Shown piece by piece: positions 26,400-44,739 of a DNA stretch of 50,349 bases; the stretch's first letter is position 1, and every line of letters begins with the position of its first letter. This stretch comes from Casimicrobiaceae bacterium (lineage in GTDB: Bacteria > Pseudomonadota > Gammaproteobacteria > Burkholderiales > Casimicrobiaceae): assembly GCA_050742615.1 (NCBI GenBank), contig JBOIGD010000105.1, positions 1 through 50,349 on the forward strand. The letters run 5' to 3'. The position numbers were made by a program, and so were the translations under genes. The notes under the pieces are model-generated. The model searched no databases. It was given only the letters and a program-made list of their open reading frames with translations, and was not told the origin of the DNA.

Positions 26400-26402
26400 G
26401 CC

Positions 26403-27581
26403 TTACTTCGGCTGCGGGTGAGTTACCGTGATCTTGCCGCCTTTCTGCACATCGACGATGTCAAAATTGAATATCTCTTCACCCGTCTGATCATAGCGAA
26501 TCTTCCACAGTCCGTCGTAAGTGAACGACTCTAGCGCCTTCTTCACTTTCGCGACATCATCCACCGTTCCCGCGCGTTTCATCGCCTCCACCAGCATATA
26601 GACGTGGTCGTAGCATGACGACGAGCACAACGGCGCCTGGTCGTAAGGAAACTCCTTGGTCTTGTAGTACGTTTTGTAGTCTTCGATGAATTTCTTCACC
26701 TTCGGCTCAGTGTTCTGCGCCTCTTCGAAGTATTTCGGAATATAGGCGACGTAGTCGTCGATGTAGTCCTTGTTCTTGAGTGCCGGCCCGAGCGAGCCGC
26801 GAACCAGCCAGAACTTCGTCAGCCCGAGCTGGGTCGCTTGCTGCACGATATCGTAGAGCACTGAGTCAGTGTATCCGGGGAACAGGTAATCGGGCTTCGC
26901 CGCCGCGATTTTGGCAAGTACCGCGGAATAGTCCTTGCTGCCGGGCTCGAACCAGTTTTCCTGAAATTCGATGCCTGCGCTCTTGAACGCCGCCCGGTAG
27001 ATGTCTGCAGCCACATGCCCGAAAGCGTCGTTCTGCATCAGCATCGCAACGTTCTTGATACCCTTTTTTTTCAGGTAATCGACCATCAAAGTGCCGAAAC
27101 CGCTCTCTCCCGCATCCCAATTCCAACTGCGCATCAGGTAGGTATTGCCGGGCTTGCCCAGTTCGTAGTGAATCTGGGTCGCGCCACCCATCAACAGAAA
27201 CGTGCCGTCATGTTGCCTGGCGTAGCCTTCGATACCCTTGAACACATTGGTGAGGAATGGGCCGAACACATACTTGACCTTGTCCTCCTCCAGCAGCTTC
27301 TTGAGCTGGATCAGCGCCTGCTGGGGGTTGCCCTGCGTGTCAGGATTGATCAACTGCAGCTTGTAGGTCTTGCCCGCGACCTGGAATCCGCCGGCCTTGT
27401 TGATTTCGTCCACAGCCATGCGCACGCCCTGCGATGACATCCAGCCGTAGGTATTGAGCGAGCCGGTCTGGGCCTCGATCTCGCCGAGTTTCACGACTTC
27501 CTGCGCGCCCGCTGTACACGCAAAGACGGCAAATCCCATCGAAACGGCAAAGAGCCTCAGTGACAAGACTAAAACTTTCAT
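26403..27581 (-). CDS. Branched-chain/aliphatic amino-acid-type ABC substrate-binding protein (Peripla_BP_6, LivK-like)
   Basis: The ATG at 27581 is preceded by GGAGGGGA. Signal peptide MKVLVLSLRLFAVSMGFAVFACTAGAQE, then VKLGEIEAQTGSLNTYG...AVDEINKAGG. Confidence 0.88.
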   Translation of the reverse strand: MKVLVLSLRLFAVSMGFAVFACTAGAQEVVKLGEIEAQTGSLNTYGWMSSQGVRMAVDEINKAGGFQVAGKTYKLQLINPDTQGNPQQALIQLKKLLEEDKVKYVFGPFLTNVFKGIEGYARQHDGTFLLMGGATQIHYELGKPGNTYLMRSWNWDAGESGFGTLMVDYLKKKGIKNVAMLMQNDAFGHVAADIYRAAFKSAGIEFQENWFEPGSKDYSAVLAKIAAAKPDYLFPGYTDSVLYDIVQQATQLGLTKFWLVRGSLGPALKNKDYIDDYVAYIPKYFEEAQNTEPKVKKFIEDYKTYYKTKEFPYDQAPLCSSSCYDHVYMLVEAMKRAGTVDDVAKVKKALESFTYDGLWKIRYDQTGEEIFNFDIVDVQKGGKITVTHPQPK

Positions 27582-27738
27582 ATCCCCTCCGTTAGCACTC
27601 GATTGGCAAATCAACCCTTCCGGACGTTGCGCTCGCGCGCGCCTCCGCAAATCGGCGTTTTATTTGCGGTCAATACCGATCGGTCATGCGTCGCGACCGA
27701 TCTTCAAGCGGTGGTTCACGCGACCCTTCGCGGCAGGA

Positions 27739-28656
27739 CTACAACGTTGCCACCACCTTTTGCGTCTGCGCATTCTCCTGCTGTTGCAAGGCGAAGATAG
27801 AGGTATAGCCGTGCGACCAGTCCGGTGGCACTTCGCACGCTTCCGGGTCGATATGCGCGTAACGCGCCGGCTTGCCGCGAATAATGGCGCCGCCGTATTT
27901 CTTTGAGGGAATGGGGTTAGGCGTGTAGGGGAACGCGTCGGCCGAAGTCAGGGTATAGAGAAGCAGCGGTCTGCCGTGGTCGGAGGTATTGGCTGGTGAC
28001 CCGTGCAGCGTGCGGCAATTGTGGATGGTCACCGAACCGGCCGGGCCTACCATGTACTTCGCCTTGCTCAGATCGATCTCGGCCACATCGTTTTCCGACA
28101 GGCAGCCTAGCCACCGGCCCTTGTCGTCGTATTGCGTCGGCATCTTCCAGCGATGACTGCCGGGCAGGAATCCCACCGGCCCCTGATCCATCTCGCAATC
28201 GTAGAGGTAGGTCCCGATCGTCAGCGGCGAGTAATTGGAGTGCGGCCAGAAGGAAATGTCGTAGTGCCATTTGACCTCCGCCCCACCTCTTGCCCATTTG
28301 AAGTTGAGCTTGGATTGGTGATATTTGACGTCCGGTCCGACGAGGTCCGCGACAATATCGCCCAGGGGCGATTGCGAGACGTAATCCCAGAACACCTGAT
28401 GCTCGTCGACCGGGCTCGATACACGGCGCAGGCGCGGATTCGTCGGCGTATGATCCGGCTCGAGATCGAATACCGCATCGGATTTCGTCACTTTGCGGCT
28501 CCTCTCCACAAGCTCCTCCGTAGCGGCGCGGAGCTGCCGAAGCCGTTCTTCCGGAACGATCTTCTGCAACAGGATAAAGCCATCGTCGAAATACGCTTCG
28601 CGCTGCTTTTGCGTGAGCACATTGGGGGAAAGCGCCAGAATCTGCTCAGGTGTCAT
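27739..28656 (-). CDS. Phytanoyl-CoA dioxygenase (PhyH) family Fe(II)/2-oxoglutarate dioxygenase, second copy
   Basis: LTQKQREAYFDDGFILLQKIVPEE opening, WHYDISFW (HxD) and a distal TIHNCRTLHGSPAN. Same family as 22173-23033 but clearly diverged. Confidence 0.8.
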   Translation of the reverse strand: MTPEQILALSPNVLTQKQREAYFDDGFILLQKIVPEERLRQLRAATEELVERSRKVTKSDAVFDLEPDHTPTNPRLRRVSSPVDEHQVFWDYVSQSPLGDIVADLVGPDVKYHQSKLNFKWARGGAEVKWHYDISFWPHSNYSPLTIGTYLYDCEMDQGPVGFLPGSHRWKMPTQYDDKGRWLGCLSENDVAEIDLSKAKYMVGPAGSVTIHNCRTLHGSPANTSDHGRPLLLYTLTSADAFPYTPNPIPSKKYGGAIIRGKPARYAHIDPEACEVPPDWSHGYTSIFALQQQENAQTQKVVATL

Positions 28657-28704
28657 GATCCGTTCCTCGCGAGAAATTGCCGTGTCGCCGCCCGCGCCGA
28701 TCCA

Positions 28705-29451
28705 TCAGCTATCAGTTCCGACGGTAGCGCGGGTGAATTGCTCGATGCTGTCGATCAACCTGTCCAAGGCCTTGGCGGCAGCGTCTTCTTCGCCCTTGGA
28801 TATGGCGCGCGCAATATCCGCGTGCAGTTTGGCAGTCAGCGGCATGTCGGCCGCCTGCTTGTAGTGAATGAACCAGAAGCGCCGCGACAATGAGTGCATC
28901 AGGGTCATCGCACCCGCGCAAAACTCGTTGCGGGATGCTTGCGAGCACAATTCGTTGAATTCGCGATCGATCCGCATGAACGTGGTTTCGTCGTTTGTTT
29001 TCGCAGACTGCTCGAAGATTCGTGCAATCTCCGCAAAGCGCGTGCGTTCGTCCGGAAGCGCCCGGCGCGCCGCGCTTCTTGCCACCAGCCGCTCGACCTC
29101 GCGACGGACCTCGAGCAGGCGCAACTGGCTCTTGACGTTGATTTCGGAGACGATTATGCCGCGCCGTGGCAGGATCGTTATCAGCCGTTCGCGGGCAAGC
29201 CGATGCAAGGCCTCTCGAATGGGGGTGCGCCCGATCCCCAACGCTTGACTCAGCCTGGCCTCGGACACTGCCGTTCCCGGATGCAGCTTGAGCGTGACGA
29301 TCATCTCTTCCAGGATCGAATACGCCTGATCGGTCAGGCTGCGCTCGTTATCGTGAAGCAATGTGGCGTCGATTGCACTGGCGACCTCGTGGGCGACGAC
29401 CTTTTCGCTCCGGTTCATCACTCGTTCCGCGGAAAGCCTGCCTGCGGTCAT
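28705..29451 (-). CDS. GntR-family transcriptional regulator (FadR/FCD subfamily)
   Basis: Winged-helix segment LTDQAYSILEEMIVTLKLHPGTAVSEARLSQALGIGRTPIREALHRLARERLITILPRRG, followed by a helical FCD-like C-terminal half. Its ATG overlaps the PanB-like stop (ATGA at 29448-29451). Confidence 0.85.
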   Translation of the reverse strand: MTAGRLSAERVMNRSEKVVAHEVASAIDATLLHDNERSLTDQAYSILEEMIVTLKLHPGTAVSEARLSQALGIGRTPIREALHRLARERLITILPRRGIIVSEINVKSQLRLLEVRREVERLVARSAARRALPDERTRFAEIARIFEQSAKTNDETTFMRIDREFNELCSQASRNEFCAGAMTLMHSLSRRFWFIHYKQAADMPLTAKLHADIARAISKGEEDAAAKALDRLIDSIEQFTRATVGTDS

Positions 29452-30350
29452 ACGTGCCTGCGCTTGTCGACGAGGCTCAGGAATGCTTCGTATTCCTTCG
29501 GGTCCACGCCGTAGCTGTGATCGTCGTCGGGAAACTGGCCCGATTTCACCTCTGCAACGTACTGCTTGAGACCGTTGACGGCGACCTCCGTGAGATTGGC
29601 ATAGCGCTTCGTGAACTTCGGCTTGAAATCGGTAAAGACGCCCAGCAGATCATAACTGAGGAGGATTTGTCCGTCGGTTCCCGCGCCCGCCCCGATTCCG
29701 ATCGTTGGAATCTCGAGTTGCGCAGAGATTACCTTGGCTATGGGTGCGGGCACGGCTTCAAACTCCAGCATGAAGCATCCGGCATCCTGAATCGCCAACG
29801 CATCGGTCAGGATTTTCATCGCCGCCGCTGCAGTGCGCCCCTGAATCCTGAATCCTCCAAAGACGGCGATGGTGTGGGGCGTCAGTCCGATATGCGACGC
29901 CGTTGGAATTCCGGCATCCACAAGCGCTTTCAATATGTGTCCTTGCGACTTGCCGCCTTGGGGCTTTATCGCATCGCAGGCCGCCTCCTGCATGAACCGC
30001 GTCGCGTTGCAAAGTGCGCGATCGATCGTGTTGTAGCTTTGGTAAGGCATGCACCCGAGCACGAACGTGTTAGGGGCGCCACGACGCACGGCCGCGGAGT
30101 GCAGAATCATCATATCCATGGTTGCGGGAATGGTATTGGGATGCCCATGGGCGACCATGGCCAGGCTGTCTCCGACCACCGCGACATCAACACCCGCCAT
30201 TTCCGCCCACCGCGCCGAGGTGTAGTCCGGCACGGACGTGTAGACCATCTTCTCACCGGATTGTTTGGAGTCCCGGATTTCGCCGATCGTGCGCTTCTTG
30301 CGAGCGGGTTGGTCCACGCGTGCCTCCCCGGAGCCCGTTGCGCTGCTCAT
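29448..30350 (-). CDS. panB: 3-methyl-2-oxobutanoate hydroxymethyltransferase (PanB) family protein, probably a catabolic paralog
   Basis: KMVYTSVPDYTSARWAEMAGVDVAVVGDSLAMVAHGH...TMDMMILHSAAVRRGAP...VLGCMPYQSY...IKPQGG match PanB conserved blocks. No other pantothenate genes are nearby. Confidence 0.75.
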   Translation of the reverse strand: MSSATGSGEARVDQPARKKRTIGEIRDSKQSGEKMVYTSVPDYTSARWAEMAGVDVAVVGDSLAMVAHGHPNTIPATMDMMILHSAAVRRGAPNTFVLGCMPYQSYNTIDRALCNATRFMQEAACDAIKPQGGKSQGHILKALVDAGIPTASHIGLTPHTIAVFGGFRIQGRTAAAAMKILTDALAIQDAGCFMLEFEAVPAPIAKVISAQLEIPTIGIGAGAGTDGQILLSYDLLGVFTDFKPKFTKRYANLTEVAVNGLKQYVAEVKSGQFPDDDHSYGVDPKEYEAFLSLVDKRRHV

Positions 30351-33628: not shown

Positions 33629-34639
33629 TCATCCATCGCTGCCGCCCCGCCGCGAAAGGCGCCGGCGCCACGACGCGAGCAGCGTTCCCTTGCGCCGGCG
33701 GTCAAGCAGATCGTCGGCGAAACGCGAGTAGCGGACGGAGGGGCGCGGCCGCTCGGGGTCGCGCTCGAGGTAGCCGAAGCTCAGGAGCTCGGGCTTCGCG
33801 ATCTCGACGACCTCCTGCAACGCCCGCGCCGGCGCGCGCCGGTGCTTGCCGAGCGAGGTCAGCCGCACGAGCGGGGCGACACGCGATATGGCCCCCGCCG
33901 GATCCGGGGCGCCGGCGAAGCGGAGCACCCGCTCGGCGGTCGCGGCGAAGTCCGCGCATAGGTCCTCGTAGCGGACTTCCAGATAGCGCTCGCCAAGCAT
34001 CGATCCGTACGCGCGTCCCACGCGGACGGCATTGCTCCAGTGCACGGCGTTGTAGAGATGGCTGCGCCGCCGGTACGACGGCCCCGTGAGCCGCAGGCCG
34101 CGCCAGGTCGCGATCCGGTCGGTGTCGAAGTAGACCTTGCGCCAGAACGGATCGTCGGGCGCGCGGTGGTCGCAGAACGCGACGTCCCGCCCGTCGCGCA
34201 CCAAGTGCACGACGCGCAGACGGCGGAAGAGTCGCACGAGGATTGGCAGCGCGTACCCGCTCTCGCAAACCTTCCAGCCCCAGGGCGCCGTCGACGTCCG
34301 GTCGAAGCCCTCAAGATGCGCATCGAAGCATTCGCGCGCGCGCCGGCCCACGTCGCGGGTGGCACACCCGGCCGAGCGGAGCCTTGCGTAGTCCGGGTAG
34401 TAGCATCGCACCAGATGCTCGATCAGCGCGAGCACGTCGAGCGAGTCCTCAGACTCGTTGCGGTGTGCGCCCATGAAGATCCCGGCCTCGGTGAGGAGGA
34501 GCGCGAGCAGGCGGCTTCCCGAGTGCGACTTGTTATAGACGATCACCGGCCCGCTCAGCCCGGCGTACGCATCGCTGACGGCATCCAGCGTCGTCTCGTC
34601 GTTCCCAATCATGGCTATATCGAATGGCCGGTCGCGCAC
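33629..34639 (-). CDS. Sulfotransferase-family protein
   Basis: PAPS-loop-like VIVYNKSHSGSRLLALLL, PWGWKVCESGYALPILVRLFRRLRVVHLVRDGRDVAF (3'-PB-type RDxRDV), and a C-terminal YLEVRYEDL. It is homologous by eye to 13086-13769. Start GTG at 34639 or ATG at 34612. Confidence 0.7.
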   Translation of the reverse strand: MRDRPFDIAMIGNDETTLDAVSDAYAGLSGPVIVYNKSHSGSRLLALLLTEAGIFMGAHRNESEDSLDVLALIEHLVRCYYPDYARLRSAGCATRDVGRRARECFDAHLEGFDRTSTAPWGWKVCESGYALPILVRLFRRLRVVHLVRDGRDVAFCDHRAPDDPFWRKVYFDTDRIATWRGLRLTGPSYRRRSHLYNAVHWSNAVRVGRAYGSMLGERYLEVRYEDLCADFAATAERVLRFAGAPDPAGAISRVAPLVRLTSLGKHRRAPARALQEVVEIAKPELLSFGYLERDPERPRPSVRYSRFADDLLDRRRKGTLLASWRRRLSRRGGSDG

Positions 34640-34669
34640 TCTGGGCCGAGGCCGGGATTAGAATGGGTC

Positions 34670-35923
34670 ATGCAGGATCCCGCTTCCCGAACAGACTATC
34701 ATGCGCCCTCCGGCCCGCTCGCGCGGCGGCGCCTGGGAGCCGGCAAGGCGGCCGCGGCACGCTTCGCCGTCCAGCGCTTCGGGTTCGGCGGTCGGCGCGC
34801 GAGGATGTCCGTGTGGTTCCACGGCGCGAGCGACGCGCAGTTCGATGCGGCGGCCGGCGTTGTCCGCGCCGTCATGGGCGGCCGCGGCGACCTTGCGCTC
34901 GTCGTGACGGCGCGCGACGCCGCCGTGGTCGAGGTGCTACGCCGAAGGTTCCCCGACGATCTCGCGCTCGCCGCACCTTGTGGCAAAGGGGGCAGCATCG
35001 CGCGGTTTCTCGCCCGCGTGCGTCCGTGCGCGCTCGTTCTTCTCGACGATGGCCGCGGCCTTGATCCGGCGGCCCTCGCGCGGCTGCGCGCGTCGCCGCT
35101 GCCCATCGTCGCGATGGGTGACGGTGCAGGCGCTGCAGCGGCAATCGGCGCGCTGTCCGCGTCGCTGCGCGACCTTCCTCCGGCCGTGCCAGCGGGCGCG
35201 CTGGTGGGACCGGCGTGGCAGGTGCCGACGCTGCGCGACCGGGTGGGGCAGAGCCGATCGTGGAAGGCCGTGGCGCCGCTCCTTATGCTTCGCCGCATCG
35301 ACGGCTGGGAGCGTCTTCGCGAGCGCCTCTCGCGGCCGCGCTCCGTGCTCTGCCTGGGCAACGGCCCGTCGTCGGAGGATCCGCAGTTGGCGGCGGTCGG
35401 GCACGACTGTCTCATCCGGGTGAACTGGCGCTGGCGGGAGCGCGGATTTTTGGTCCGACCGAACATCGTCTTCGTTGGCGACGCGGCCACGATCCATAAG
35501 GCGCCGCCGTGCATCTTCGGCTTGTGGAGCGTGAATCTCGAGCACGCGATGCTGTTGCGGCATCTGGTCACGCACGGCCCCATCGCGATGGAGTATTTCA
35601 CCGCCGAACGGCTTTCGCCGCTGGCCGCGGAGCAGCGCTGGCAGGTGCGGCCAAGCAACGGCGCGCTCGCGATCGTCACGGCCGCGGCGCTCGCGCCGGA
35701 GCGCCTGATCATCGGTGGCATGGACCTCTTCCGGCATCCCGACGGCCGCTATCCGGGCGAAGGCAGGTCGCGCAACGAATACTCCACGGCGCACAAGCTC
35801 GAGACCGAGCTTGCCATCATTGATCTCGCGCTTCGCAACTTCCGCGGCGAAGTCGTCATCCTCAGCGGAATCCTGCGCGACCATCTCGAACACTACCGCG
35901 AGAGCACGCGTCGTGTTGCCTGA
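34670..35923 (+). CDS. Chimeric glycosyltransferase: Kdo-transferase N-terminal-domain-like region fused to a CstII/GT42-like (sialyltransferase-type) domain
   Basis: The N half, RFAVQRFGFGG...VWFHGASDAQFDAA...LVVTARD...FPDDLALAAPCGKGGSIARFLARVRPCALVLLDD...LPIVAM, parallels WaaA RWGERYGF...HSVSVGE...VTTMT...YLPYD...RFL...P.LVLIME. The C half, VLCLGNGPSSED...DCLIRVNWRW, RPSNGALAIVTAAALAPERLIIGGMDLF and YSTAHKLETELAIIDLAL, parallels CstII AGNGPSLKE...DVFRCNQFY, ITSGVYMCAVAIALGYKEIYLSGIDFY and IGHSKNTDIKALEFL. The track ORF upstream of 34670 is antisense to the sulfotransferase. Confidence 0.6.
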   Translation: MQDPASRTDYHAPSGPLARRRLGAGKAAAARFAVQRFGFGGRRARMSVWFHGASDAQFDAAAGVVRAVMGGRGDLALVVTARDAAVVEVLRRRFPDDLALAAPCGKGGSIARFLARVRPCALVLLDDGRGLDPAALARLRASPLPIVAMGDGAGAAAAIGALSASLRDLPPAVPAGALVGPAWQVPTLRDRVGQSRSWKAVAPLLMLRRIDGWERLRERLSRPRSVLCLGNGPSSEDPQLAAVGHDCLIRVNWRWRERGFLVRPNIVFVGDAATIHKAPPCIFGLWSVNLEHAMLLRHLVTHGPIAMEYFTAERLSPLAAEQRWQVRPSNGALAIVTAAALAPERLIIGGMDLFRHPDGRYPGEGRSRNEYSTAHKLETELAIIDLALRNFRGEVVILSGILRDHLEHYRESTRRVA

Positions 35924-36983
35924 CGCCATCTTCGGGGACGTTCCGCCGCGCAGGATACTCGCCGTCAAGCTGGGCTCGTTCGGCGACATCGTGCAGACGA
36001 CGGCGAGCCTGCGGGCGCTGCGGCGCGCATTTCCTGCCGCCGACATCCGCGTTGCCGTCGAGCGGCGCTGGGCACCACTGCTCGCTGCCTGCCCCGACGT
36101 GAACGGCGTCCTCGAAGCGTCGTCCCGCCAGCGGCTCACGCCGAGCCACGTCTGGGAGGTGCGGCGCCTGCTTGCTGAGGCTTGCCGCCGACCGGGACCT
36201 TTCGACCTCGCCCTGGACTTCCAGGGAACGCGACGGAGCGCCGCGTGGGTCTATCTGAGCGGCGCCCGCGTCAAGGCCGGCAGGGGGAAGCCCCGCCCCG
36301 GCTGGCGCGCGGCCATCGCAATGGACCGCACGCGCCACGCCGTGCGCGGGTACGCCGACGTCTGCGAGTGCATCGGGATCGCGGCCGGCGACCTCGACCC
36401 GGCACTGTACACGTCGCCCGACGACGAAGCGCGGATCGAGGCGATCCTCGACGGCGCGCGGCTTCCGCGCAGCGGATTCGTGCTGCTCAACCCGTTCAGC
36501 GTGTGGCCTTCGAAGAGCTGGGATGAGCGTCGCGCTGCGGAACTCGCGTCGCAGGTGGCGAGCGTGACACGCGCGGCCGTCGTCGTGACCGGCGGGGACA
36601 ACGAGAGCGCCCGCGCCGCCGACGTCGTCCGCCTTGCCCGCCATGGAAGCGTGTCGTCGCTCGCGGGCCGGCTCTCTCTCGGCGAGGCGCTGTGCCTGTT
36701 CCGGCGCGCGCGCCTCATGATCTCCTGCGATTCGGGTCCGATGCATGCGGCGGCTGCCCTGGGAACCCCGGTCGTCGCGCTCTTCGGCCCGACACTCCCC
36801 GAGCACACGGGGCCGTGGGGACCGGGGCACAGGGTCGTGCAGGCATCGCGGCCGCCCGATCATCATGCGTATCGGCGGGACCACGGGCGGCAGCACATGG
36901 GGGCGCTTGGCGTGCAGGCGGTTGCCGATGCCGTCCAGGGGGCCATGCGCGCGACCGCCGCGGCCGCGGCAACGCCGCGATGA
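35913..36983 (+). CDS. Glycosyltransferase family 9 (heptosyltransferase-like)
   Basis: RRILAVKLGSFGDIVQTTASLRALRRAFPAADIRVAVERRWAPLLAACPDVNGVLE, and a C-terminal LMISCDSGPMHAAAALGTPVVALFGPT. The GTG at 35913 overlaps the upstream gene by 11 nt. Confidence 0.85.
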   Translation: MLPDAIFGDVPPRRILAVKLGSFGDIVQTTASLRALRRAFPAADIRVAVERRWAPLLAACPDVNGVLEASSRQRLTPSHVWEVRRLLAEACRRPGPFDLALDFQGTRRSAAWVYLSGARVKAGRGKPRPGWRAAIAMDRTRHAVRGYADVCECIGIAAGDLDPALYTSPDDEARIEAILDGARLPRSGFVLLNPFSVWPSKSWDERRAAELASQVASVTRAAVVVTGGDNESARAADVVRLARHGSVSSLAGRLSLGEALCLFRRARLMISCDSGPMHAAAALGTPVVALFGPTLPEHTGPWGPGHRVVQASRPPDHHAYRRDHGRQHMGALGVQAVADAVQGAMRATAAAAATPR

Positions 36984-38071
36984 TCCGCCGCATCGCGGTC
37001 TTCCTGCCTAACTGGGTTGGCGACGCCGCGATGGCGACGCCGACACTGCGGGCATTGCGGAACCGCTTCGGTGCGGCCGTCGAGATGATCGGCATCATGC
37101 GCCCGCTCGTCGAAGAGGTCCTCTTTGGAACGCGGTGGATCGACACCGTGTGGCACTACGACCCTGCGGGCGCGGACCCGCGCCTGCGCTGGCCCGCGCT
37201 CGTCCGCCGGCTCCGCGGCGCCGCGGTCGATCTTTCGATCCACCTCACCAACGATTTCAAATCCGCCCTCGCGGCGCGGCTCGGCGGCGCGCGCCAGCGC
37301 GCGGGCTACGCGCGCAACGGGCGTGCCTGGCTGCTTACGACGCGGCTCGATCCCCCGCGACGAGGGCGCGAACTGCTGTCCGTCCCGGCGCTCGACTATT
37401 ACCTCGAGCTTGCTTACGCGCTCGGGTGCGCCAAGGAGTCGCCGCGGCTCGAGCTCGCCACCACGGCGCGCGACGACGAAGCGGCGGACCGCGCGTGGGC
37501 CGCGATCGGCATCCCCCCGGGCGAGGCGCCGGTCATCATCAATTCGAGCGGCACCTTCGGCTCGGCCAAGCTCTGGCCGGAACGCCACTGCGCCGCGCTT
37601 GCTGCGCGCATCGCCCGCGAACTCGGGCTCCACGTCGTCATTCTTTGCGGTCCCGCCGAGCGCGAGCACGCCGCGCGGGTCACGGTCGCGGCCGGCCACG
37701 CACGAGTGGCGAGCCTTGCCGGAATGCCGCTCTCGATCGGGCTCAGCAAGGCCTGCGTGCGCCGCGCGCGCTGCCTCGTGAGTACGGACAGTGGCCCGCG
37801 ACACTTCGGCGCGGCGTTCGGCGTGCCCGTTGTCGCACTCTTCGGACCGACGGACCCGGCGTGGACCGACACGCGCTACCCCGGTGAGGTTCGTCTCGCC
37901 AAGCCGGTCCCTTGCGGACCCTGCGGGCAGCGCGAGTGCGCGCTGCGCCACCACGCGTGCATGGAGCAGCTGTTGGTCGACGAGGTGTACCGCGAGGTCG
38001 CGCGCGCCGTTGCCGGCGGCAGCCCGCGACACGCGACGCCTCGTGCGACGTTACGCGGAGCTACGGCGTGA
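36980..38071 (+). CDS. Glycosyltransferase family 9, WaaF (heptosyltransferase II)-like
   Basis: IRRIAVFLPNWVGDAAMATPTLRALRNRF (compare PSWVGDMMM in WaaF), CLVSTDSGPRHFGAAFGVPVVALFGPTDP, and PCGPCGQRECALRHHACMEQL. ATGA overlap at 36980-36983. Confidence 0.85.
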   Translation: MIRRIAVFLPNWVGDAAMATPTLRALRNRFGAAVEMIGIMRPLVEEVLFGTRWIDTVWHYDPAGADPRLRWPALVRRLRGAAVDLSIHLTNDFKSALAARLGGARQRAGYARNGRAWLLTTRLDPPRRGRELLSVPALDYYLELAYALGCAKESPRLELATTARDDEAADRAWAAIGIPPGEAPVIINSSGTFGSAKLWPERHCAALAARIARELGLHVVILCGPAEREHAARVTVAAGHARVASLAGMPLSIGLSKACVRRARCLVSTDSGPRHFGAAFGVPVVALFGPTDPAWTDTRYPGEVRLAKPVPCGPCGQRECALRHHACMEQLLVDEVYREVARAVAGGSPRHATPRATLRGATA

Positions 38072-39228
38072 AGGTCGCACTCGTCTGCGATCGCTTCGAT
38101 CCCGCGGGCGGCGGCCTCGAGCAGTGGCTCTGCCAGCTCGCGCCACGGCTAGAGCGGCGCGGCCACGAGGTGCACGTCATCGCCTTTCGTGTCGCCGCAG
38201 ATGTTGGACGCGAGCGGATGCATAGGCTCGCGTGGAGCGCGGACCGCCTCGAACGCGCTGCCGCCGTCGAGCGCACCGTCGTCGCCCTCGCGCCGGACGT
38301 CACCCACGACACCGGGGTCGGGTGGAGCTACGACGTCCTCCAGCCGCAGGCGGGCTCGATGCTCGCGAACCACCGACGCGACCTCGCGAGCCTGTCGCCC
38401 GGCGCGCGGATGCGCCGGTGGGTGAGTCCTGCCTGGCATCGCTGGCGACGCGAAGCGCGGGAGCTGGAGCGACGCCAGTACGTCCTCGCGAAAGGCCTCG
38501 TGATCGCCGTCTCCGGCATGGTCGCGCGCGAGATCCAGTCGCGCTTCGGGGTTGGGGCCGAGCGCCTGCGCGTCGTCCCGAACGGCGTCGACACCGACCG
38601 CTATGCGCCCGCGCGATGCGCCGCGGTGCGCGCCACCGCGCGCGCGCACGTCGGTGCCGACAGGACGGCATCGGTCTTTCTGTTCGCGGCCCGCAACCCG
38701 GGGCTCAAGGGGCTTTTGCCGCTGCTTCGGGCCACCGCCATCCTCCGCGCGAGCGGCGCGCCCATCCGGGTCGTCGCGATTGGAAGCGAGCCGGACGCGC
38801 TGTTCCGGCGCGAGGCCGTGCGCCTTCGCGTCGACGACGTCGTGACCTTCGCGGGCGTCGTCGACGATCCGGCGCTCCACTACGCAGCGGCGGACGCGTT
38901 CGTCCTGCCGACCTACTACGACGCCTGCAGTCTCACCGCCCTCGAGGCGTGCGCGTGCGGCCTGCCCGTCATCACGTCCCGCCACAACGGCGCCGCCGAG
39001 CTCATGTCGCACGATCGCGACGGCTTCGTGCTGGACGAGCCCGACAACGTGCGTAGCCTCGCGGCGCTCATGACTCGGGCCACCGACGTGGGAGTGTGGC
39101 AGCGGGTGTCGCTCGCGGCGCGGCAGCTCGCGCTTCGCAACACGCTGGAGCGCAATGTCGACGCCGTCGAGAATGCGTACTTCGAAGCGCTCGCCCGCCG
39201 GGCCACCGCGTCGCGCCCCGCCGGGTGA
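38068..39228 (+). CDS. Glycosyltransferase family 4 (GT-B, group 1)
   Basis: VKVALVCDRFDPAGGGLEQWLCQLAPRLERRGHEVHVIA at the N terminus. The C-terminal FVLPTYYDACSLTALEACACGLPVITSRHNGAAEL is an E-x7-E-type motif. GTGA overlap at 38068-38071. Confidence 0.85.
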   Translation: MKVALVCDRFDPAGGGLEQWLCQLAPRLERRGHEVHVIAFRVAADVGRERMHRLAWSADRLERAAAVERTVVALAPDVTHDTGVGWSYDVLQPQAGSMLANHRRDLASLSPGARMRRWVSPAWHRWRREARELERRQYVLAKGLVIAVSGMVAREIQSRFGVGAERLRVVPNGVDTDRYAPARCAAVRATARAHVGADRTASVFLFAARNPGLKGLLPLLRATAILRASGAPIRVVAIGSEPDALFRREAVRLRVDDVVTFAGVVDDPALHYAAADAFVLPTYYDACSLTALEACACGLPVITSRHNGAAELMSHDRDGFVLDEPDNVRSLAALMTRATDVGVWQRVSLAARQLALRNTLERNVDAVENAYFEALARRATASRPAG

Positions 39229-39259
39229 TCGCCGTCCGGACGCTTTCGCACATGCCGAC

Positions 39260-40243
39260 ATGCTGAAGACAGCGCGACGAATATTGGTCACCGGAGCCGG
39301 CGGATTCATCGGCTCGCACCTCGTCGAGTCACTCGTCGAGCGCGGCTGCCGGGTGCGCGCCATGGTCCGGTACACGTCCGGTGGCGGGCGGGGGTGGCTC
39401 GATGACGTACCCGCCGCCGCCGATGTCGAGTTCGCGGCCGGCGACGTGCGCGATCACGACACGGTGCTGGCGGCGATGACCGGGTGCGACGTCGTGTTTC
39501 ACCTGGCCGCGCTGATCGGGATTCCCTACTCGTACGTCTCTCCGCTCGCCTACGTGCGGACGAACGTCGATGGCATGCTCAACGTACTCGAAGCGGCCCG
39601 GGCGCTCGGCGTGGCCCGGGTCGTCGTGACCTCGACGAGCGAAGTCTACGGGACCGCGCAGTACTGCCCGATGGACGAAGCGCATCCGGTGCATTGCCAG
39701 TCACCGTACGCGGCGAGCAAGGCGGGCGCGGACCAGCTGGCCATAAGCTATCACCGCTCGTTCGGCCTGCCGGTCGCCATCGCCCGTCCGTTCAACGTCT
39801 ACGGGCCGCGCCAGTCGGACCGCGCGCTGATCCCGACGATCGCGACGCAACTCCTGGCGGGCGGCCCTGTCCGCCTCGGCAACGCCAGTCCCACCCGCGA
39901 CTTCACCTACGTCGTGGACACCGTTCGCGCCCTTGCCGCGGTTGCCAGCGCCGAGCACCTCATCGGCGAGGCTGCGAACATCGGCAGCGGCAACGAGATA
40001 TCCGTCGGCGCGCTGGCGAAACTGGTCGGCGAAGTTGCCGGCCGCGAAACGACGATCGCAAGCGACGACGACCGCGCGCGCCCGGGCACCAGCGAGGTCG
40101 AGCGCCTGTGCTGCGACAGCACGAAGCTGCGCTCGCTGACGGGATGGCGCCCCGCGACCCCGCTGGAGGACGGTCTGCGCCGGACGCTCGAGTGGATCGA
40201 GCCGCGCCTCGCGCGCTTCCGGATCGGTGAATACCGCGTGTGA
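39260..40243 (+). CDS. NAD-dependent epimerase/dehydratase (extended SDR, sugar-nucleotide 4,6-dehydratase-like)
   Basis: ILVTGAGGFIGSHLVESL (GxxGxxG), STSEVYG, and YAASKAGAD (YxxxK). Confidence 0.85.
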   Translation: MLKTARRILVTGAGGFIGSHLVESLVERGCRVRAMVRYTSGGGRGWLDDVPAAADVEFAAGDVRDHDTVLAAMTGCDVVFHLAALIGIPYSYVSPLAYVRTNVDGMLNVLEAARALGVARVVVTSTSEVYGTAQYCPMDEAHPVHCQSPYAASKAGADQLAISYHRSFGLPVAIARPFNVYGPRQSDRALIPTIATQLLAGGPVRLGNASPTRDFTYVVDTVRALAAVASAEHLIGEAANIGSGNEISVGALAKLVGEVAGRETTIASDDDRARPGTSEVERLCCDSTKLRSLTGWRPATPLEDGLRRTLEWIEPRLARFRIGEYRV

Positions 40244-40246
40244 CAC

Positions 40247-40942
40247 ATGAAGGCAGTCATCCTCGCGGGCGGCGAAGGACGCCGGCTCCATCCTTACACG
40301 CTCACGATCCCGAAACCGATGATGCCGATCGGCGACCGGCCGATCCTTGAACTCCTGGTCGAGCAGCTGCGCCGATGCGGAATCACCGACCTTGTCCTGG
40401 CAACCGGCCACCTCAGCGAGATCATTCGCGGCCACTTCGGCGACGGCCGCGACTTCGGTGTGTCGATCCGCTATTCGAAGGAGGAGAACGCGCTCGGCAC
40501 GGCCGGGCCCCTCGGCCTCGTCCGGACGGCGCTCGACCGGACGTTCCTGGTGCTCAACGGAGACATCTTCGCCGATCTCGATCTTGGGGCGATCATCGCG
40601 GATCATCGACACAGGGCAAGCGACGCGACCGTGGTCCTCGCGCGCCACGCCGAGACGTTCGAGTTCGGCGTCGTCGGTCTGGACGAGCGCGGCGACGTCA
40701 CTTCGTGGGACGAAAAGCCGGTCGTCGAGCGCCTCGTGAGCGCCGGCGCCTACGTCATGGAGCCCGCAACGCTCGCGCACCTCGAGCCGTCTGCGTACGC
40801 CAACCTCCCGGACCTCGTCATGGCGCTCGTCCGCGCGCGACTGCGTGTTCGTGGGCACGTGCACACAGGTTATTGGTACGACATCGGCAGCCCCGGCGAC
40901 TACGAGCGCGCGTGCGCCGCCGCGCGCGTTGCGCAGCAATGA
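40247..40942 (+). CDS. Sugar-1-phosphate nucleotidyltransferase (NTP_transferase family; size and opening resemble HddC-type heptose-1-P guanylyltransferases)
   Basis: MKAVILAGGEGRRLHPYTLTIPKPMMPIGDRPILE is the canonical G-x-G-x-R-L signature. At 231 aa it has no left-handed beta-helix extension. Confidence 0.8.
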   Translation: MKAVILAGGEGRRLHPYTLTIPKPMMPIGDRPILELLVEQLRRCGITDLVLATGHLSEIIRGHFGDGRDFGVSIRYSKEENALGTAGPLGLVRTALDRTFLVLNGDIFADLDLGAIIADHRHRASDATVVLARHAETFEFGVVGLDERGDVTSWDEKPVVERLVSAGAYVMEPATLAHLEPSAYANLPDLVMALVRARLRVRGHVHTGYWYDIGSPGDYERACAAARVAQQ

Positions 40943-41811
40943 GCGAAGCGCTGCGCGTGCTCGTCGCGGGCGGCAGCGGGTTCATCGGCGCCGCGATCGC
41001 GCGACGGCTGCGCGCAGAAGGCGCAAATGTTACGATCGCGAGCCTTGCCAGCGGCGTCGATCTCGCCCGTTGGGAGGCCGTCGAGGGCCTGGGTCCCTTC
41101 GCCGCGATCGTGCATGCGGCGGGGCGCGCGTCGGTGCAGGATTCGTTCGCGTCGCCGCGCTCGTACTATCGCGACCATCTTCTCATCACGCTCAACCTGC
41201 TCGAGCTGGCACGGCTATCGCACGCCCGACTCGTGCTCGCGAGCACCTACGTCTACGGCACGGCGCCGCGCGTGCCCGCGGCGGAGGACGATGCCATCGG
41301 GGCGCACTCGCCCTACACGGCGAGCAAGCTGCTGGCGGAACGCCTCTGCCGCGAGTACCACCGCGACTTCGGGGTGCCCGTCGACGTTCTGCGCGTCTTC
41401 AATGCCTACGGTCCCGGCCAGCCGGACACGTTCCTCATCCCGCGAATCGTCGCCGGCGCCGTCGCCGGCCGCATCGAACTTGCTGACCCGGCGCCGCGAC
41501 GCGATTTCGTCCATGTCGACGACGTCGCGCGCGCTTTCGCACTCGCTGCGCGGCGCGCTGCAGGAGACTTCGAGATCTTCAACATCGGGTCGGGCGAAAG
41601 CCGCTCAGCCGACGCGGTCGCCAGGACCGCGGCGAGACTGGCCGGCGGCGCAGTTGAGATCTTCTACTCCGGCGTGATTCGCGCAGCCGAAATGGCCGAC
41701 GCGCGCGCCGATGTCGCCGAGGCCGCGCGGGAGCTCGCGTGGCGGGCGACGATCGATTTCGAGGCGGGCCTCGCGTCGCTGGTCGCGGCGGCCAAGGGTG
41801 CGCGATCGTGA
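40939..41811 (+). CDS. NAD-dependent epimerase/dehydratase (SDR), reductase/epimerase-like
   Basis: VLVAGGSGFIGAAIARRL, and YTASKLLAE (YxxxK). ATGA overlap at 40939-40942. Confidence 0.8.
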   Translation: MSEALRVLVAGGSGFIGAAIARRLRAEGANVTIASLASGVDLARWEAVEGLGPFAAIVHAAGRASVQDSFASPRSYYRDHLLITLNLLELARLSHARLVLASTYVYGTAPRVPAAEDDAIGAHSPYTASKLLAERLCREYHRDFGVPVDVLRVFNAYGPGQPDTFLIPRIVAGAVAGRIELADPAPRRDFVHVDDVARAFALAARRAAGDFEIFNIGSGESRSADAVARTAARLAGGAVEIFYSGVIRAAEMADARADVAEAARELAWRATIDFEAGLASLVAAAKGARS

Positions 41812-42902
41812 CGCCCCGCCGCCTCATCGCCTACACCCACGCGCGCGACGACCCGGCCGCGCGCTTCCGGATACGCCAGTTCATTCCCCGCTTCGAGCGC
41901 GCCGGCTGGAGCGTGTCGCACCGGACCAACCACCCGGAGCGTCCGTGGCAGAGTCCTTTCTCCGCGCAATCCGCACGCTGGGTGCACCAGCATGCGGGTG
42001 TCGCGGTCCGCCGGCTCTGGCGACGATGGGATATCCGCGCCGCGGCTGCGTTCGACGTCGCCTTCGTCAACCGCGACCTGCTGGAAGGCCGCGTTGCGTA
42101 CGAGGCCGCGCTCCTGCGCCGCAACGCCCGGGTTGTCTTCGACTTCGACGACGCGATCCATCTCGGACGGAAGGAAGCGCACGTCGCATGGATCTGCGCG
42201 CATGCCGCCTGGGTCACCGCAGGGAACGCGCTGCTCGCCCATGTCGCCCGCCGCTATACAGACCGAGTGAGCGTGGTCCCGACCGTCGTCGACACCGATA
42301 CGTATTCGGCGCCCGCCGATCCGCGGGAGGACGGCCCGCTGCGTCTCGGCTGGCTCGGCTCGGACCTTTCAATCCGCGAGACGCTCTTTCCGTTCCTGCC
42401 GACGCTCGCAGCGCTGCAGCAGGCGATCGGCTTCGAATTCGTCGTGGTATCGAAACCGCGCCCGAACCTGCCGAGCAGCCCGCTGCGCTGGCGGTTCGTC
42501 GAGTGGAACCCCGAGGTCGAGACCCGGATCGCCGGGCTCTTCGACGTCGGAATCATGCCGCTGGAGGACAACGCATTCCAACGCGGCAAGTGCGGGTGCA
42601 AGCTGCTGCAGTACATGGCGGCCGGCCTCCCCGCCGTAGCGTCGCCCGTCGGCGTAAACGCGCGACTCCTCGACGATGGACGGGGCTTCCTCGCGAACGA
42701 TCGCGACGCATGGGGCGCGGCGTTGATGCGACTCCGCGACACCGCGCTGCGTCGCGAACAGGGCGCCGCCGCGCGCCGGTTCGTCGAACGCGAGTACTCG
42801 GTCACCGCCTGGTTCCCGCATCTGCTCGACATCGTCGAGAGCGTGCGGGTGGGTGAGCGCCCCGACGGGGCCGGCGTCCGGGCGTCCGAAAATGGCGGCT
42901 GA
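41808..42902 (+). CDS. Glycosyltransferase (GT-B, group-1-like C-terminal domain)
   Basis: LRLGWLGSDLSIRETLFPFLP...VGIMPLEDNAFQRGKCGCKLLQYMAAGLPAVASPVGVN resembles the Glyco_trans_1_2-type C terminus. GTGA overlap at 41808-41811. Confidence 0.7.
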   Translation: MTPRRLIAYTHARDDPAARFRIRQFIPRFERAGWSVSHRTNHPERPWQSPFSAQSARWVHQHAGVAVRRLWRRWDIRAAAAFDVAFVNRDLLEGRVAYEAALLRRNARVVFDFDDAIHLGRKEAHVAWICAHAAWVTAGNALLAHVARRYTDRVSVVPTVVDTDTYSAPADPREDGPLRLGWLGSDLSIRETLFPFLPTLAALQQAIGFEFVVVSKPRPNLPSSPLRWRFVEWNPEVETRIAGLFDVGIMPLEDNAFQRGKCGCKLLQYMAAGLPAVASPVGVNARLLDDGRGFLANDRDAWGAALMRLRDTALRREQGAAARRFVEREYSVTAWFPHLLDIVESVRVGERPDGAGVRASENGG

Positions 42903-43113
42903 GGCTTTCCCGGCCGCTGGCCGAGTGGCCGGTCGGGCATGCGCGGCTTTGTGGCGGGCTTCCTCATGGCCGCAGGCAGGCCCGTCGATCCGCGATCAAC
43001 GCGGTTCATCACCGATGCCGATGGCCGCTGAGATGCATATGCAGGCGATCGCGGAGGCCTCGCCGGCCCGACGCGAGTGTCGGTCGGCATGTTGGTGCGG
43101 TTGAGGCGTGCCG

Positions 43114-43725
43114 ATGCACCCCCGTGTCTTCGCCGAGTTCGACCGCATCTGCCGCGAGCGCCGGGCCGGCGGCGATGTGCTCGAGATCGGTGCGGTCGCG
43201 CCGCCCGACGCGTTGCTTTGCCTGCCCGCACTCGCGCAGGCGCGGAGTCGCATCGGGGTGAACCTGACCGGCGACGCCTGCTTCGAGGGCTGGCGGATCG
43301 TCGGCGCCAACGCCAACGACCTCGGCTGCTTCGCCGACGCGTCGTTCGACACCGTGCTGGCGAACTCGGTCTTCGAGCACGATCCGTTCTTCTGGCGCTC
43401 GCTGCGGGCGATGCGCCGCGTCGCGCGCCCGGGCGCCGTGATCGTCGTCGGCGTCCCAGGCTATGCGACGGACGGCCCCGGGCGATTGCTGAAACGGCTC
43501 GCGCACCTGCCGGTGCTCGGTGCCGCGGTGCGCCGCTGCGCGGCCTCGCGTCTCGCGTCGACCGCGACGCTGGGCATCCACGACTTCCCTGGAGACTACT
43601 ACCGCTTCAGCCCGCAGGCCGTGCGCGAAGTGCTGCTCGACGGGCTCGTCGACCGCGACGTTCGTCGTATCCTCTTGCCGCCCCGTCTGGTGGGCTCGGG
43701 GATCGTCCCGGCGCGCCCGGCGTGA
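43114..43725 (+). CDS. Class I SAM-dependent methyltransferase
   Basis: DVLEIGAV (motif I-like), ASFDTVLANSVFEHDPFFWRSLRAMRRVARPGAVIVVGVP (Methyltransf_11-type). The ATG at 43114 lies 7 nt after GAGG. The track start is the GTG at 43108. Confidence 0.7.
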   Translation: MHPRVFAEFDRICRERRAGGDVLEIGAVAPPDALLCLPALAQARSRIGVNLTGDACFEGWRIVGANANDLGCFADASFDTVLANSVFEHDPFFWRSLRAMRRVARPGAVIVVGVPGYATDGPGRLLKRLAHLPVLGAAVRRCAASRLASTATLGIHDFPGDYYRFSPQAVREVLLDGLVDRDVRRILLPPRLVGSGIVPARPA

Positions 43726-43750
43726 TCGACGCCCCACCGGCGCGCGGCCC

Positions 43751-44131
43751 ATGTCGGCGGCCTTGGCCGTGCTTGCGCGCACCGCGGTGGCGGACGACAT
43801 TCGCGCGGTCTTCTGCGCGTCCATGAACATCGCCGCAACGATGCTCCCCACCGGAGTCAGGATTCTCGAGATCGGCGAGTTCTCGCTGTTCAAGCGCAAC
43901 CTTCCCGGGCAAACGACCCTCGTCTTCACCGGCGACAACCCGGACCGGCTGGCGGGCTCGATCACCGCCGGTTCGGCCCCGCGATGCTGCCGGGCCTGTT
44001 GCGGTCGCTGCGCCGTGGTTTTGAGCCACTATTCGCTGCCCCGGATCTTGCGAAGCACCTTGCGGCAGATCAAGTACGCGCGTAGCGACGGCTTGGTCAG
44101 CGGCAGCCGCGCGAACATCCCGCGCAAGTAG
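43751..44131 (+). other. Coding-like ORF of uncertain status at the right border of the GC-rich island (possible truncated gene)
   Basis: MSAALAVLARTAVADDIRAVFCASMNIAATMLPTGVRILEIGEFSLFKRNLPGQTTLVFTGDNPD... has strong GC3 bias up to about 43990. After that the ORF turns Cys/Arg-rich and overlaps the convergent deacetylase gene by about 100 nt. Confidence 0.25.
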
Positions 44132-44739
44132 TGCGCGTCGACCCGCGGCAATTGAGATCGCGTGGTGCGTGTCGACAGGAAACCGAGGCGAGCCGTGAAC
44201 GCCGCCACGTACCTTGCTCCGATGCGCTCCGCGACGCGGTCGCTGCAGTAGCCAAATGGGTAAGCGAAATACTGCGGCCGCCGACCGACATGACGTTCGA
44301 TAAGCGTGTCCCCCATCGCACATTCGGCATCGATCTCGGAGTCGGAGAGCGCGCGCAAATCCCGGTGGCTATGCGTGTGGCTCTCAATCACAACACCGCC
44401 TTCGGCGAGGCGGTTGATCTGGTCCCAGTTCAGCATCGGATACGCGCTCGCTCCCGTCGCAGTGCCTTCCACCGCGCCGGTGTGGAGGAACAAATGGGCT
44501 GGGGCACGATATTGGCGCAAAATGGGAAATGCCACGTCGAACACTGACCGCATGCCATCGTCGAAAGTCAGCGCCACCCCGGACATCGTTTCGGTTGCAA
44601 GCAGCGCATCGAGACTGACGATCGGCACGTTCGCTGCGGCCAGCGTCGCGAGCAGAACCTCGAAATCCACGGGTGTGTACGACATTGCCCCCGCGCCGTG
44701 GTCTACGCTGTGGAATGTAAGTACCGCACGCATAGTCAC
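44029..44739 (-). CDS. Polysaccharide deacetylase (NodB-homology) family protein
   Basis: VLTFHSVDHG...VALTFDDGMRSVFDVAFPILRQYRAPAHLFL...ESHTHSHRDL are the NodB-type metal and catalytic motifs. Start GTG at 44739 (overlapping the GT4 stop) or ATG at 44733. Confidence 0.8.
   Translation of the reverse strand: MTMRAVLTFHSVDHGAGAMSYTPVDFEVLLATLAAANVPIVSLDALLATETMSGVALTFDDGMRSVFDVAFPILRQYRAPAHLFLHTGAVEGTATGASAYPMLNWDQINRLAEGGVVIESHTHSHRDLRALSDSEIDAECAMGDTLIERHVGRRPQYFAYPFGYCSDRVAERIGARYVAAFTARLGFLSTRTTRSQLPRVDAHYLRGMFARLPLTKPSLRAYLICRKVLRKIRGSE

Follow-up and report, generated by a model that had tools for sequence, protein, structure and literature searches.

Conserved fusion of a degenerate WaaA-type domain with a CstII-like domain in a candidate CMP-ulosonate transferase family with an inner-core gene context

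Introduction

[quoted passage not shown] In 2025, KdoT of Acinetobacter baumannii, which moved KdoIII from cytidine monophosphate (CMP)-activated Kdo to Kdo2-lipid A in vitro, showed that accessory Kdo transferases exist, and its homologue from Rickettsia complements a kdoT mutant (PMC12856342). WaaA-independent assembly of the inner core is a recently opened question. Here, we describe a gene that may belong to this field, at positions 34670-35923 of the forward strand of contig JBOIGD010000105.1 of a Casimicrobiaceae bacterium (assembly GCA_050742615.1); the whole stretch of 50,349 nt that was analysed is called the window below. Its product joins a domain derived from WaaA to a domain resembling the sialyltransferase CstII, a combination to which an earlier note on this DNA had drawn attention. 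We propose, with moderate confidence and on the basis of sequence comparison, predicted structure and gene context, that it transfers a CMP-activated ulosonic acid, probably Kdo, in the making of an LPS-inner-core-like glycolipid.

Several described systems are close enough to be compared with this fusion protein. In WaaA, residues G30, E31, E98 and K162 are required for activity, with E31 as the putative catalytic base, S28, S54 and R56 are the proposed ligands of lipid IVA's 1-phosphate, and CMP is bound by R212, N273 and E276 (PMC6286764). KdoT is an ELM1-like protein (PF06258) that acts independently of WaaA and sets a functional precedent for accessory inner-core Kdo transferases (PMC12856342). 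It has a GT-B fold and no sequence relation to either domain of the fusion protein, which did not match PF06258; as shown below, KdoT-family proteins are neighbours of the new family in Alphaproteobacteria rather than relatives of it. CstII and CstI of Campylobacter jejuni (GT42, PF06002) are sialyltransferases with a modified GT-A fold, and the accepted catalytic base of CstII is His188 (PMC4202792). Use of CMP-beta-Kdo by sialyltransferase-fold enzymes has been shown or proposed for plant RCKT1/MGP2 (GT29; PMC11288761) and for the flagellin-modifying Maf (PF01973; bioRxiv 10.1101/2020.06.03.131540); the acceptors of the former, a eukaryotic Golgi enzyme, and of Maf differ from the one that we propose. 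Finally, WbbB (GT99) and KpsC (GT107) are bacterial multi-domain proteins in which a Kdo-transferring module is combined with others for the assembly of lipid-linked glycans. Both are reported to be beta-Kdo transferases of the retaining type whose GT-B architecture is heavily modified (PMC9587256, PMC10148158), in which they would differ from the fusion protein. Neither was recovered in any search with the new family.

The earlier note had not recognised the domain combination as one already described. This agrees with our full-text literature searches, which found no account of the fusion or of the family of its C-terminal domain (CTD).

Results and discussion

One gene encodes both domains

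The open reading frame (ORF) at 34670-35923 (+) begins with ATG and translates into 417 aa followed by a stop codon. Translation, public gene calls and an AlphaFold2 model divide the product into a WaaA-N-like domain (N-domain), a linker and a sialyltransferase-like CTD, and we regard this two-domain architecture, together with the catalytic inactivity of the N-domain, as very nearly certain. The model of the whole protein, computed from an alignment of 51 sequences, reached a mean predicted local distance difference test score (pLDDT) of 84.2 and a predicted template modelling score (pTM) of 0.80. Residues 1-21 are disordered in it, and a flexible linker at aa ∼173-182 (35186-35215) is marked by pLDDT values below 50 at residues 174-184.

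Each motif quoted in the earlier note was present at the place it had given in the translation: in the N-terminal half QRFGFGG, WFHGAS, ASDAQ, LVVTARD, RPCALVLLDD and LPIVAM start at residues 35, 49, 53, 77, 118 and 144, and in the C-terminal half LGNGPS, LIRVNWRW, SNGAL...GGMDLF and STAHKLE... start at residues 229, 248, 329 and 372. We also found no N-terminal membrane helix, as had been stated; the Kyte–Doolittle mean over 19 residues peaks at 0.48 for windows starting in residues 1-45.

The concern that resequencing might split the ORF into two separate genes found no support, as the same 417-aa protein is called as a single gene on two public contigs, one from an NCBI metagenome-assembled genome (MAG; GCA_050742715.1) and one from Logan. 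When the same fusion was sought in other genomes, the WaaA-like N-domain and the CTD lay in one ORF in 76 of 83 loci, which speaks against a frameshift or two-gene artefact as its source. The nearest genome matches are Casimicrobiaceae and uncultured betaproteobacterial MAGs, with 90-95% identity in the CTD.

The C-terminal domain has a predicted sialyltransferase fold

Searches of the C-terminal half as a single sequence (phmmer against PDB, Pfam and NCBIfam) returned no match, and it took family profiles and structure prediction to bring out its relationship. When A2, a profile built from 26 diverse CTDs, was searched against all PDB sequences, it gave nine matches with E ∼1e-4, all of them sialyltransferases (CstII/CstI and one lipooligosaccharide (LOS) alpha-2,3-sialyltransferase), the alignments taking in the GNGPS loop as well as the R-x-T-S-G...G-I-D-F-Y segment. 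Likewise, hhalign aligned A2 to CstII, used as a single-sequence template, over 164 columns (E 5.6e-5, 66% probability). The CstII sequence used here is presumably correct, its register fitting the published residues N31, N51, Y81, R129 and H188. PF06002 (CST-I) gave sub-threshold matches in 8 of the 26 CTDs (best E 0.0012), the single scored match reaching 15.7 bits against a gathering score of 25, and no other family recurred. Because the Pfam threshold for CST-I is not reached, we treat the CTD as a separate family and not as a member of GT42; it has no Pfam model of its own.

Structure prediction led to the same relatives. A model of the CTD alone (pLDDT 91.1, pTM 0.90) was compared with known structures using Foldseek, and the top 11 matches were all sialyltransferases (CstI, CstII and 9c08 of GT42, plus ST6GALNAC2 of GT29), with probability 1.00 and template modelling (TM) scores of 0.45-0.56; the next match had a TM score of 0.25. 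For CstII/CstI (1ro7, 2p2v) and 9c08 the TM scores were 0.47-0.56, again with probability 1.00. The top matches of the whole-protein model were likewise all GT42/GT29 sialyltransferases with probability 1.00. The reading of the C-terminal half as CstII/GT42-like is thus borne out by profile, hhalign and Foldseek matches, and structural comparison, which the earlier note had proposed as a check, assigned both halves as it had expected, the N-terminal one to WaaA and the C-terminal one to sialyltransferases.

The catalytic core of the CTD (aa 223-417; 35336-35920) aligns with CstII in each of its characteristic segments. HMMER and hhalign pair the predicted nucleotide-binding loop G230-N-G-P-S234 (35357-35371) with CstII G8-N-G-P-S12, R327-P-S-N-G331 (35648-35662) with R129-I-T-S-G133, and the stretch from G350-M-D352 to Y361 (35717-35752) with G152-I-D154 to Y162. 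In addition, hhalign pairs R250/N252 with R29/N31, and H375 (35792-35794), which is invariant in all alignments, with the catalytic base His188. The two proteins would accordingly have in common the GNGPS loop, R-x-N, R-x-[TS]-x-G, G-x-D, the tyrosine and the catalytic histidine. Among 51 full-length homologues, G230-P233, R250, N252, G331, G350, D352, G359, Y361 and H375 are invariant, and S234, R327, P328 and N330 are conserved at at least 90%. We consider the predicted fold and the active-site assignment to be solid.

There are also differences from CstII. The N170-H188 stretch of CstII holds the lid, and the corresponding N369-H375 loop of the fusion protein is much shorter. The core is preceded by a conserved helical lead-in of ∼40 residues (aa 183-222; 35216-35335; helices at 188-193, 196-205 and 213-219 in the AlphaFold2 model), in which W183, R189, D190, S195, W198 and D211 are conserved at at least 90%; it is retained in proteins that consist of the CTD only and has no counterpart in CstII. 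Furthermore, CstII is not fused to a WaaA-derived domain.

Membership of the MptE/DUF115 family was considered and found no support. PF01973, which the earlier note had listed for searching, matched neither the fusion protein nor any of the 26 CTDs, and no Maf structure was among the top 50 Foldseek matches. SteA (9hmy/9hmz), which we take to have the MptE-like fold, was matched by the whole-protein model alone, with a root-mean-square deviation above 15 Å, and was absent from the matches of the CTD-only model.

The N-terminal domain is a degenerate WaaA module

The N-domain (aa ∼25-172; 34742-35185) was the only part of the protein to match a Pfam family. PF04413 (Glycos_transf_N) aligned to aa 35-126 with E 7.6e-8 and 32.6 bits, above its gathering score of 23.9, and the NCBIfam equivalog for WaaA (NF004388) aligned over aa 34-147 with 28.5 bits against a cut-off of 438. 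In the AlphaFold2 model, aa 47-168 form a six-stranded Rossmann-like domain of six beta/alpha units, and Foldseek with the whole-protein model matched the WaaA of Aquifex aeolicus (2xci) with E 7e-4. The N-terminal half is hence, as had been suggested, similar to the GT-B N-domain of Kdo transferases.

Its catalytic residues are largely gone. We confirmed by hmmalign with a WaaA sequence that the S-x-G-E motif is replaced, as the earlier note had read from ASDAQ: it has become S54-D55-A56-Q57 (34829-34840), with WaaA G30 changed to A56 and E31 to Q57, and with S28 kept as S54. The same alignment showed that WaaA S54, R56 and E98 correspond to D, A and D, respectively. Across 51 short forms, compared by means of an N-domain model since the model of the long forms described below left the short-form N-domain unaligned, the position of E31 is Q in 23, A in 13 and E in 3. 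Moreover, the N-domain stops at aa ∼172 and the CTD begins at aa ∼183, with the CMP-binding GT-B C-domain of WaaA absent from the protein. Without this domain the N-terminal half could not act alone as a glycosyltransferase and, G30/E31 being lost as well, the CTD would have to be the catalyst. The WaaA-like half is, then, almost certainly a non-catalytic remnant, which differs from WaaA in the lack of the CMP-binding C-domain, of G30/E31, of the S54/R56 ligands and of the N-terminal membrane helix.

With half of the protein a dead enzyme remnant, one may ask whether the whole is not a transferase at all but instead hydrolyses CMP-sugars, serves as a regulator or, as a pseudoenzyme, scaffolds the neighbouring GT9 and GT4 enzymes. 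We consider this very unlikely: every alignable catalytic and nucleotide-binding position of CstII is invariant over at least six phyla, and the CTD is far better conserved than the N-domain across the family, as one would expect where selection acts on an active site.

A small, old family with three architectures

A homologue search with the fusion protein yielded 123 relatives. An exhaustive phmmer search of the CTD against 1.84 billion representatives at 50% identity found 295 proteins with E ≤1e-3, 256 of which had E ≤1e-10; this makes it a small family with sharp limits that does not grade into GT42. In a scan of GTDB species, it was present in 161 of 185,579 genomes from at least six phyla. 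Carriers include Burkholderiales/Casimicrobiaceae, Acidobacteriota, Aminicenantes, Planctomycetota, Verrucomicrobiota, Rokubacteria, Binatia and many Alphaproteobacteria, among them the cultured isolates Pelagibius litoralis DSM 21314, Arboricoccus pini B29T1, Hansschlegelia plantiphila VKM B-2347 and Mesorhizobium loti CJ3sym. Some carrier genomes are complete or nearly so (CAVZQQ010000004.1, OZ240092.1, OZ272519.1 and NZ_OZ245757.1). The fusion is therefore neither unique nor a recent chimera, but belongs to an old conserved family of ∼300 clusters at 50% identity. Two copies occur at separate sites on one alphaproteobacterial chromosome (OZ272519.1; loci L059 and L066), and in a Rokubacteria MAG (L045:8964-10635) the N-domain and the CTD are found in two adjacent ORFs, either a real split gene or a frameshift.

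Among the 256 representatives, 160 are short like the protein in the window, 57 are long (∼600-680 aa) and 39 are CTD-only or partial; in one protein (P0085) the CTD is followed by a GT4 domain. Thirty-six long forms were combined into a profile, which matched A. aeolicus WaaA (2xci) with E 1e-21 over both GT-B domains; the long forms are full-length WaaA homologues to which the CTD is added. They carry the complete GT-B but few keep all of the WaaA motifs. Among the 36, G30 is mostly L or I, and E31 is Q in 16 and still E in 9; K162 is mostly replaced by D, H272 by A, N273 by V, S or Y and E276 by A or L, and R212 is retained in 23.

In a small clade, mostly of Planctomycetota, the WaaA module keeps GxGEF and GH(N/S)L(L/I/V)EP (loci L032, L030 and L041; proteins P0110, P0187, P0138, P0184 and P0149). 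The motifs read GMGEF and GH(S/N)L(I/L)EP in L032:8608-10710 and in the partial L030 and L041 (Planctomycetota/Gemmataceae), and, judged by these residues, the long forms at the three loci are probably bifunctional WaaA + CTD enzymes. By the Rosetta-stone principle, this fusion to an intact WaaA suggests that the CTD acts in the pathway of WaaA, on the lipid A-Kdo region, and is the strongest single argument for such a role.

The family thus comes in three architectures: intact WaaA + CTD (Planctomycetota), degenerate full-length WaaA + CTD (mostly Acidobacteriota) and WaaA N-domain + CTD. A decay series of the WaaA module from intact through degenerate to truncated is plausible. In a comb-like neighbour-joining tree of 250 CTDs the intact-WaaA fusions formed one small clade, and the polarity between long and short forms is not fixed by it. 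A bolder idea, which we put forward only tentatively and think more doubtful than probable, is that the family preserves, with all intermediates extant, the exchange of a GT-B donor domain for an unrelated one of GT-A type. It would have led from intact WaaA in Planctomycetota through dead full-length WaaA in Acidobacteriota to the N-domain alone in Beta- and Alphaproteobacteria, each with the CTD, and would have ended in a hybrid-fold Kdo transferase whose WaaA-derived domain presents the lipid A/Kdo acceptor to a CstII-like active site, founding a separate pathway for a sulfated, heptose-rich inner-core-like glycolipid.

The gene context points to the LPS inner core

In the window, the fusion gene is the first of a tightly packed operon, with a sulfotransferase gene (33629-34612, −; 327 aa, PF13469) diverging on its other side. 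Its stop codon is overlapped by the start of a GT9 heptosyltransferase-like gene (35916-36983, +; PF01075), an adjacency to GT9 that it shares with waaA. A second gene of this kind (36980-38071, +; PF01075) and a GT4 glycosyltransferase gene (38068-39228, +; PF00534/PF13439) come next. These are followed by genes for a 4,6-dehydratase-like protein (39260-40243, +), an NTP_transferase (40247-40942, +; PF00483, which is not the CMP-sugar synthetase family) and an epimerase/reductase (40939-41811, +), all three of them sugar-nucleotide genes. A GT4-like gene (41808-42902, +) and a methyltransferase gene (43114-43725, +) complete the conserved operon; both were assigned by Pfam and by tblastn with genes of the relative at locus L084, with 92-94% identity over 41808-43725.

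Similar gene sets surround the family elsewhere. A long-form gene on a 1.3-Mb contig, with ∼57% identity in the CTD, is flanked by the same genes (sulfotransferase, family gene, GT9, GT4, dehydratase, nucleotidyltransferase and epimerase). Among clade-A loci, a GT9 homologue lies ≤4 kb downstream of the family gene in 29, directly abutting it in most, a GT4 homologue lies within ≤4 kb in 34 and a sulfotransferase homologue within ≤4 kb in 23. GT9 genes directly abut the family gene in ∼25 loci across phyla. When 100 neighbour ORFs of 12 clade-A loci were pooled and scanned with Pfam, the prevailing families were GT4, GT9, Sulfotransfer_3, methyltransferase, GT2 and GMD/epimerase. All neighbour counts come from targeted phmmer and pooled Pfam scans; clustering the six-frame ORFs of 81 loci by single linkage merged the fusion protein with GT9 and, the DNA being rich in G+C, gave many antisense shadow clusters.

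The alphaproteobacterial loci have a context of their own. In 21 of them (L037-L079), an ELM1-like gene of the KdoT family (PF06258) lies directly upstream on the same strand, as exemplified by L055:8232-9422 and L060:8058-9290. A GT8-like/methyltransferase fusion (∼497 aa) and a 2-oxoglutarate-Fe(II) oxygenase are found downstream, and 7 of the 12 alphaproteobacterial loci scanned have an ATP-binding cassette (ABC) exporter with fused membrane and ATPase domains, an MsbA-like architecture, nearby. The arrangement of the ELM1-like gene, the family gene and the two downstream genes looks like a conserved, undescribed inner-core operon. Taken together, the gene context within the window and across phyla points to the LPS inner core, in contrast to the outer-core LOS context of CstII.

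We looked for the genes that would accompany a sialic acid-type donor. The statement of the earlier note that the island has no CMP-sugar synthesis genes was upheld, with no CMP-sugar synthetase or nonulosonic-acid synthase family among those reported for it, and no sialic acid pathway adjoins the fusion gene, in contrast to CstII. The 25 most frequent families around 24 related loci likewise included no nonulosonate or CMP-sugar synthetase genes (CTP_transf_3, PF02348; NeuB-type). This bears on whether the CTD might be a true sialyl- or nonulosonyltransferase that decorates the LPS core or another glycan with CMP-Neu5Ac, CMP-legionaminic acid, CMP-pseudaminic acid or CMP-Kdn as donor. Sialyltransferases are, indeed, the only structural and sequence relatives of the CTD, and its catalytic residues match those of CstII. 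We nevertheless judge such a role unlikely given the absence of NeuA/NeuB/NeuC-type and CTP_transf_3 genes from the top families of those neighbourhoods and from the cluster in the window, and given that the CTD is fused to WaaA modules and adjoins KdoT-like and GT9 genes, all associated with Kdo chemistry. The family is, furthermore, spread over soil and aquatic phyla, where sialic acid pathways are probably uncommon.

A different question is whether the fusion protein could be the only enzyme of its organism to add the first Kdo to lipid IVA, its GT42-like domain having replaced the lost GT-B donor domain. Its N-domain is the acceptor-binding half of WaaA, its gene is placed as waaA is relative to heptosyltransferase genes, the pTM of the two-domain model suggests a fixed arrangement of the domains, and we found no canonical waaA within the 50-kb window. 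Yet the family is rare while LPS is widespread, and in the alphaproteobacterial locus L057 a canonical, motif-intact WaaA is encoded 6 kb from the family gene. The combination of an intact WaaA module and the CTD in Planctomycetota implies complementary rather than redundant activities, and the ligands of the lipid IVA 1-phosphate, S54 and R56, have been lost. On balance, a primary transferase seems to us quite unlikely.

Proposed function

The evidence above is most consistent with an accessory transferase that uses a CMP-activated ulosonic acid, most probably Kdo, and acts on an LPS-inner-core-like glycolipid. The earlier note had proposed a CMP-Kdo/sialic-acid-like transferase with a module that binds a lipid A/core-type acceptor; the domains stood up to profile and structure comparison, and gene context and Rosetta-stone fusions agree with the proposal. 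Donor and acceptor, the sequence of the steps and what the N-domain does are inferred in the following.

The CTD (aa ∼183-417) would be the catalyst and bind a CMP-activated 2-keto-3-deoxy acid sugar, the type of donor used by CstII, with the nucleotide held by the GNGPS loop and G350-x-D352. His375 would be the general base that acts on the hydroxyl of the acceptor, the phosphate of the leaving CMP would be stabilised by R327 and Y361, and transfer would be inverting, as in CstII. The most probable donor is CMP-beta-Kdo from housekeeping metabolism, given that the gene is accompanied by no other CMP-sugar pathway and that enzymes of the sialyltransferase fold are able to accept CMP-Kdo. The WaaA remnant (aa ∼25-172) may only dock the enzyme on the inner-membrane surface or on a lipid A-Kdo acceptor. 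The product would be a Kdo-type residue on a lipid A/inner-core-like glycolipid, to be extended by the downstream GT9 heptosyltransferase-like and GT4 enzymes of the operon and then modified by the adjacent sulfotransferase and methyltransferase.

Several observations weigh against this proposal. The PF06002 search leaves the fusion protein unmatched even at E ≤10, so that of the expected GT42 likeness it is the fold and the catalytic residues that stand, not the profile match; that likeness is remote, with 14-19% identity and a TM score of ∼0.5. The choice of donor leans on the absence of other pathways within neighbourhoods of ∼20 kb, and such a pathway could lie elsewhere in the genome. A canonical waaA in a carrier genome was seen at one locus only (L057). 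Some proteins consist of the CTD alone, among them P0086, which is encoded on a complete chromosome, and the N-domain is therefore not strictly required. Lastly, since the N-domain has lost the S54 and R56 ligands of WaaA, the acceptor may not be lipid A itself.

By sequence, the family can be described as sialyltransferase-fold glycosyltransferases outside GT42, in a new fusion with a pseudo-WaaA module and in an inner-core context. If our proposal is true, it would represent, after KdoT, a second and structurally unrelated class of accessory inner-core transferase, and a bacterial sialyltransferase-fold family that acts on the lipid A/Kdo region. It would also offer a natural series for the decay of a catalytic domain into a substrate-docking module. 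Sulfotransferase, GT9 and GT4 genes are conserved partners of the family in several phyla, which points to a sulfated LPS core or glycolipid that has yet to be described and would occur in common soil and water bacteria, and the several cultured carriers make the hypothesis directly testable.

Surroundings of the operon

The operon differs in composition from its surroundings: G+C content is 0.708 over 33629-43725, 0.622 in the 33.6 kb upstream and 0.645 beyond 44 kb. We saw no sign of a phage or plasmid origin of the fusion gene, although no search was aimed at it. The 90%-identical relative carries a third GT9 gene (L084:18331-19392; 353 aa) between the GT4-like and methyltransferase genes, which the window is without at the corresponding position (42902-43114). 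A 318-aa ORF at 43009-43965 (−) was considered as a conserved neighbour and second sulfotransferase and was rejected, as it has no Pfam match and no similarity to the sulfotransferase at 33629-34612 (−) and is an antisense shadow of the methyltransferase gene at 43114-43725 (+). Its apparent 'homologues' in 23 loci call for caution in the ORF-based reading of high-GC DNA.

Synteny with L084 stops at ∼43.8-44.0 kb, where the next gene of L084, of 374 aa, is recognisable only over its first ∼87 residues, in two frames, which suggests a rearrangement or insertion breakpoint. Past this point, a polysaccharide gene set on the opposite strand (44029-49788, −) encodes a polysaccharide deacetylase, a GT4 and an NTP_transf_5 protein, together with an ABC exporter of 647 aa in which membrane and ATPase domains are fused, again an MsbA-like architecture.

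On the other side of the operon, a low-GC stretch (0.57-0.59) encodes an 874-aa protein of unusual architecture, with a SEC-C motif, tetratricopeptide repeats, GT2 and GT1 (10408-13032, +). Between this gene and the operon, a run of genes at 14099-30350 (−) resembles a catabolic or transport island with no relation to the glycan operon. It includes genes for a fused tripartite ATP-independent periplasmic (TRAP) DctM/DUF3394 transporter, an NMT1-like binding protein, BKACE, a class III aminotransferase and an RpiR/SIS regulator, as well as a phosphoenolpyruvate mutase-family protein, two PhyH dioxygenases, a branched-chain-type ABC system, GntR and PanB.

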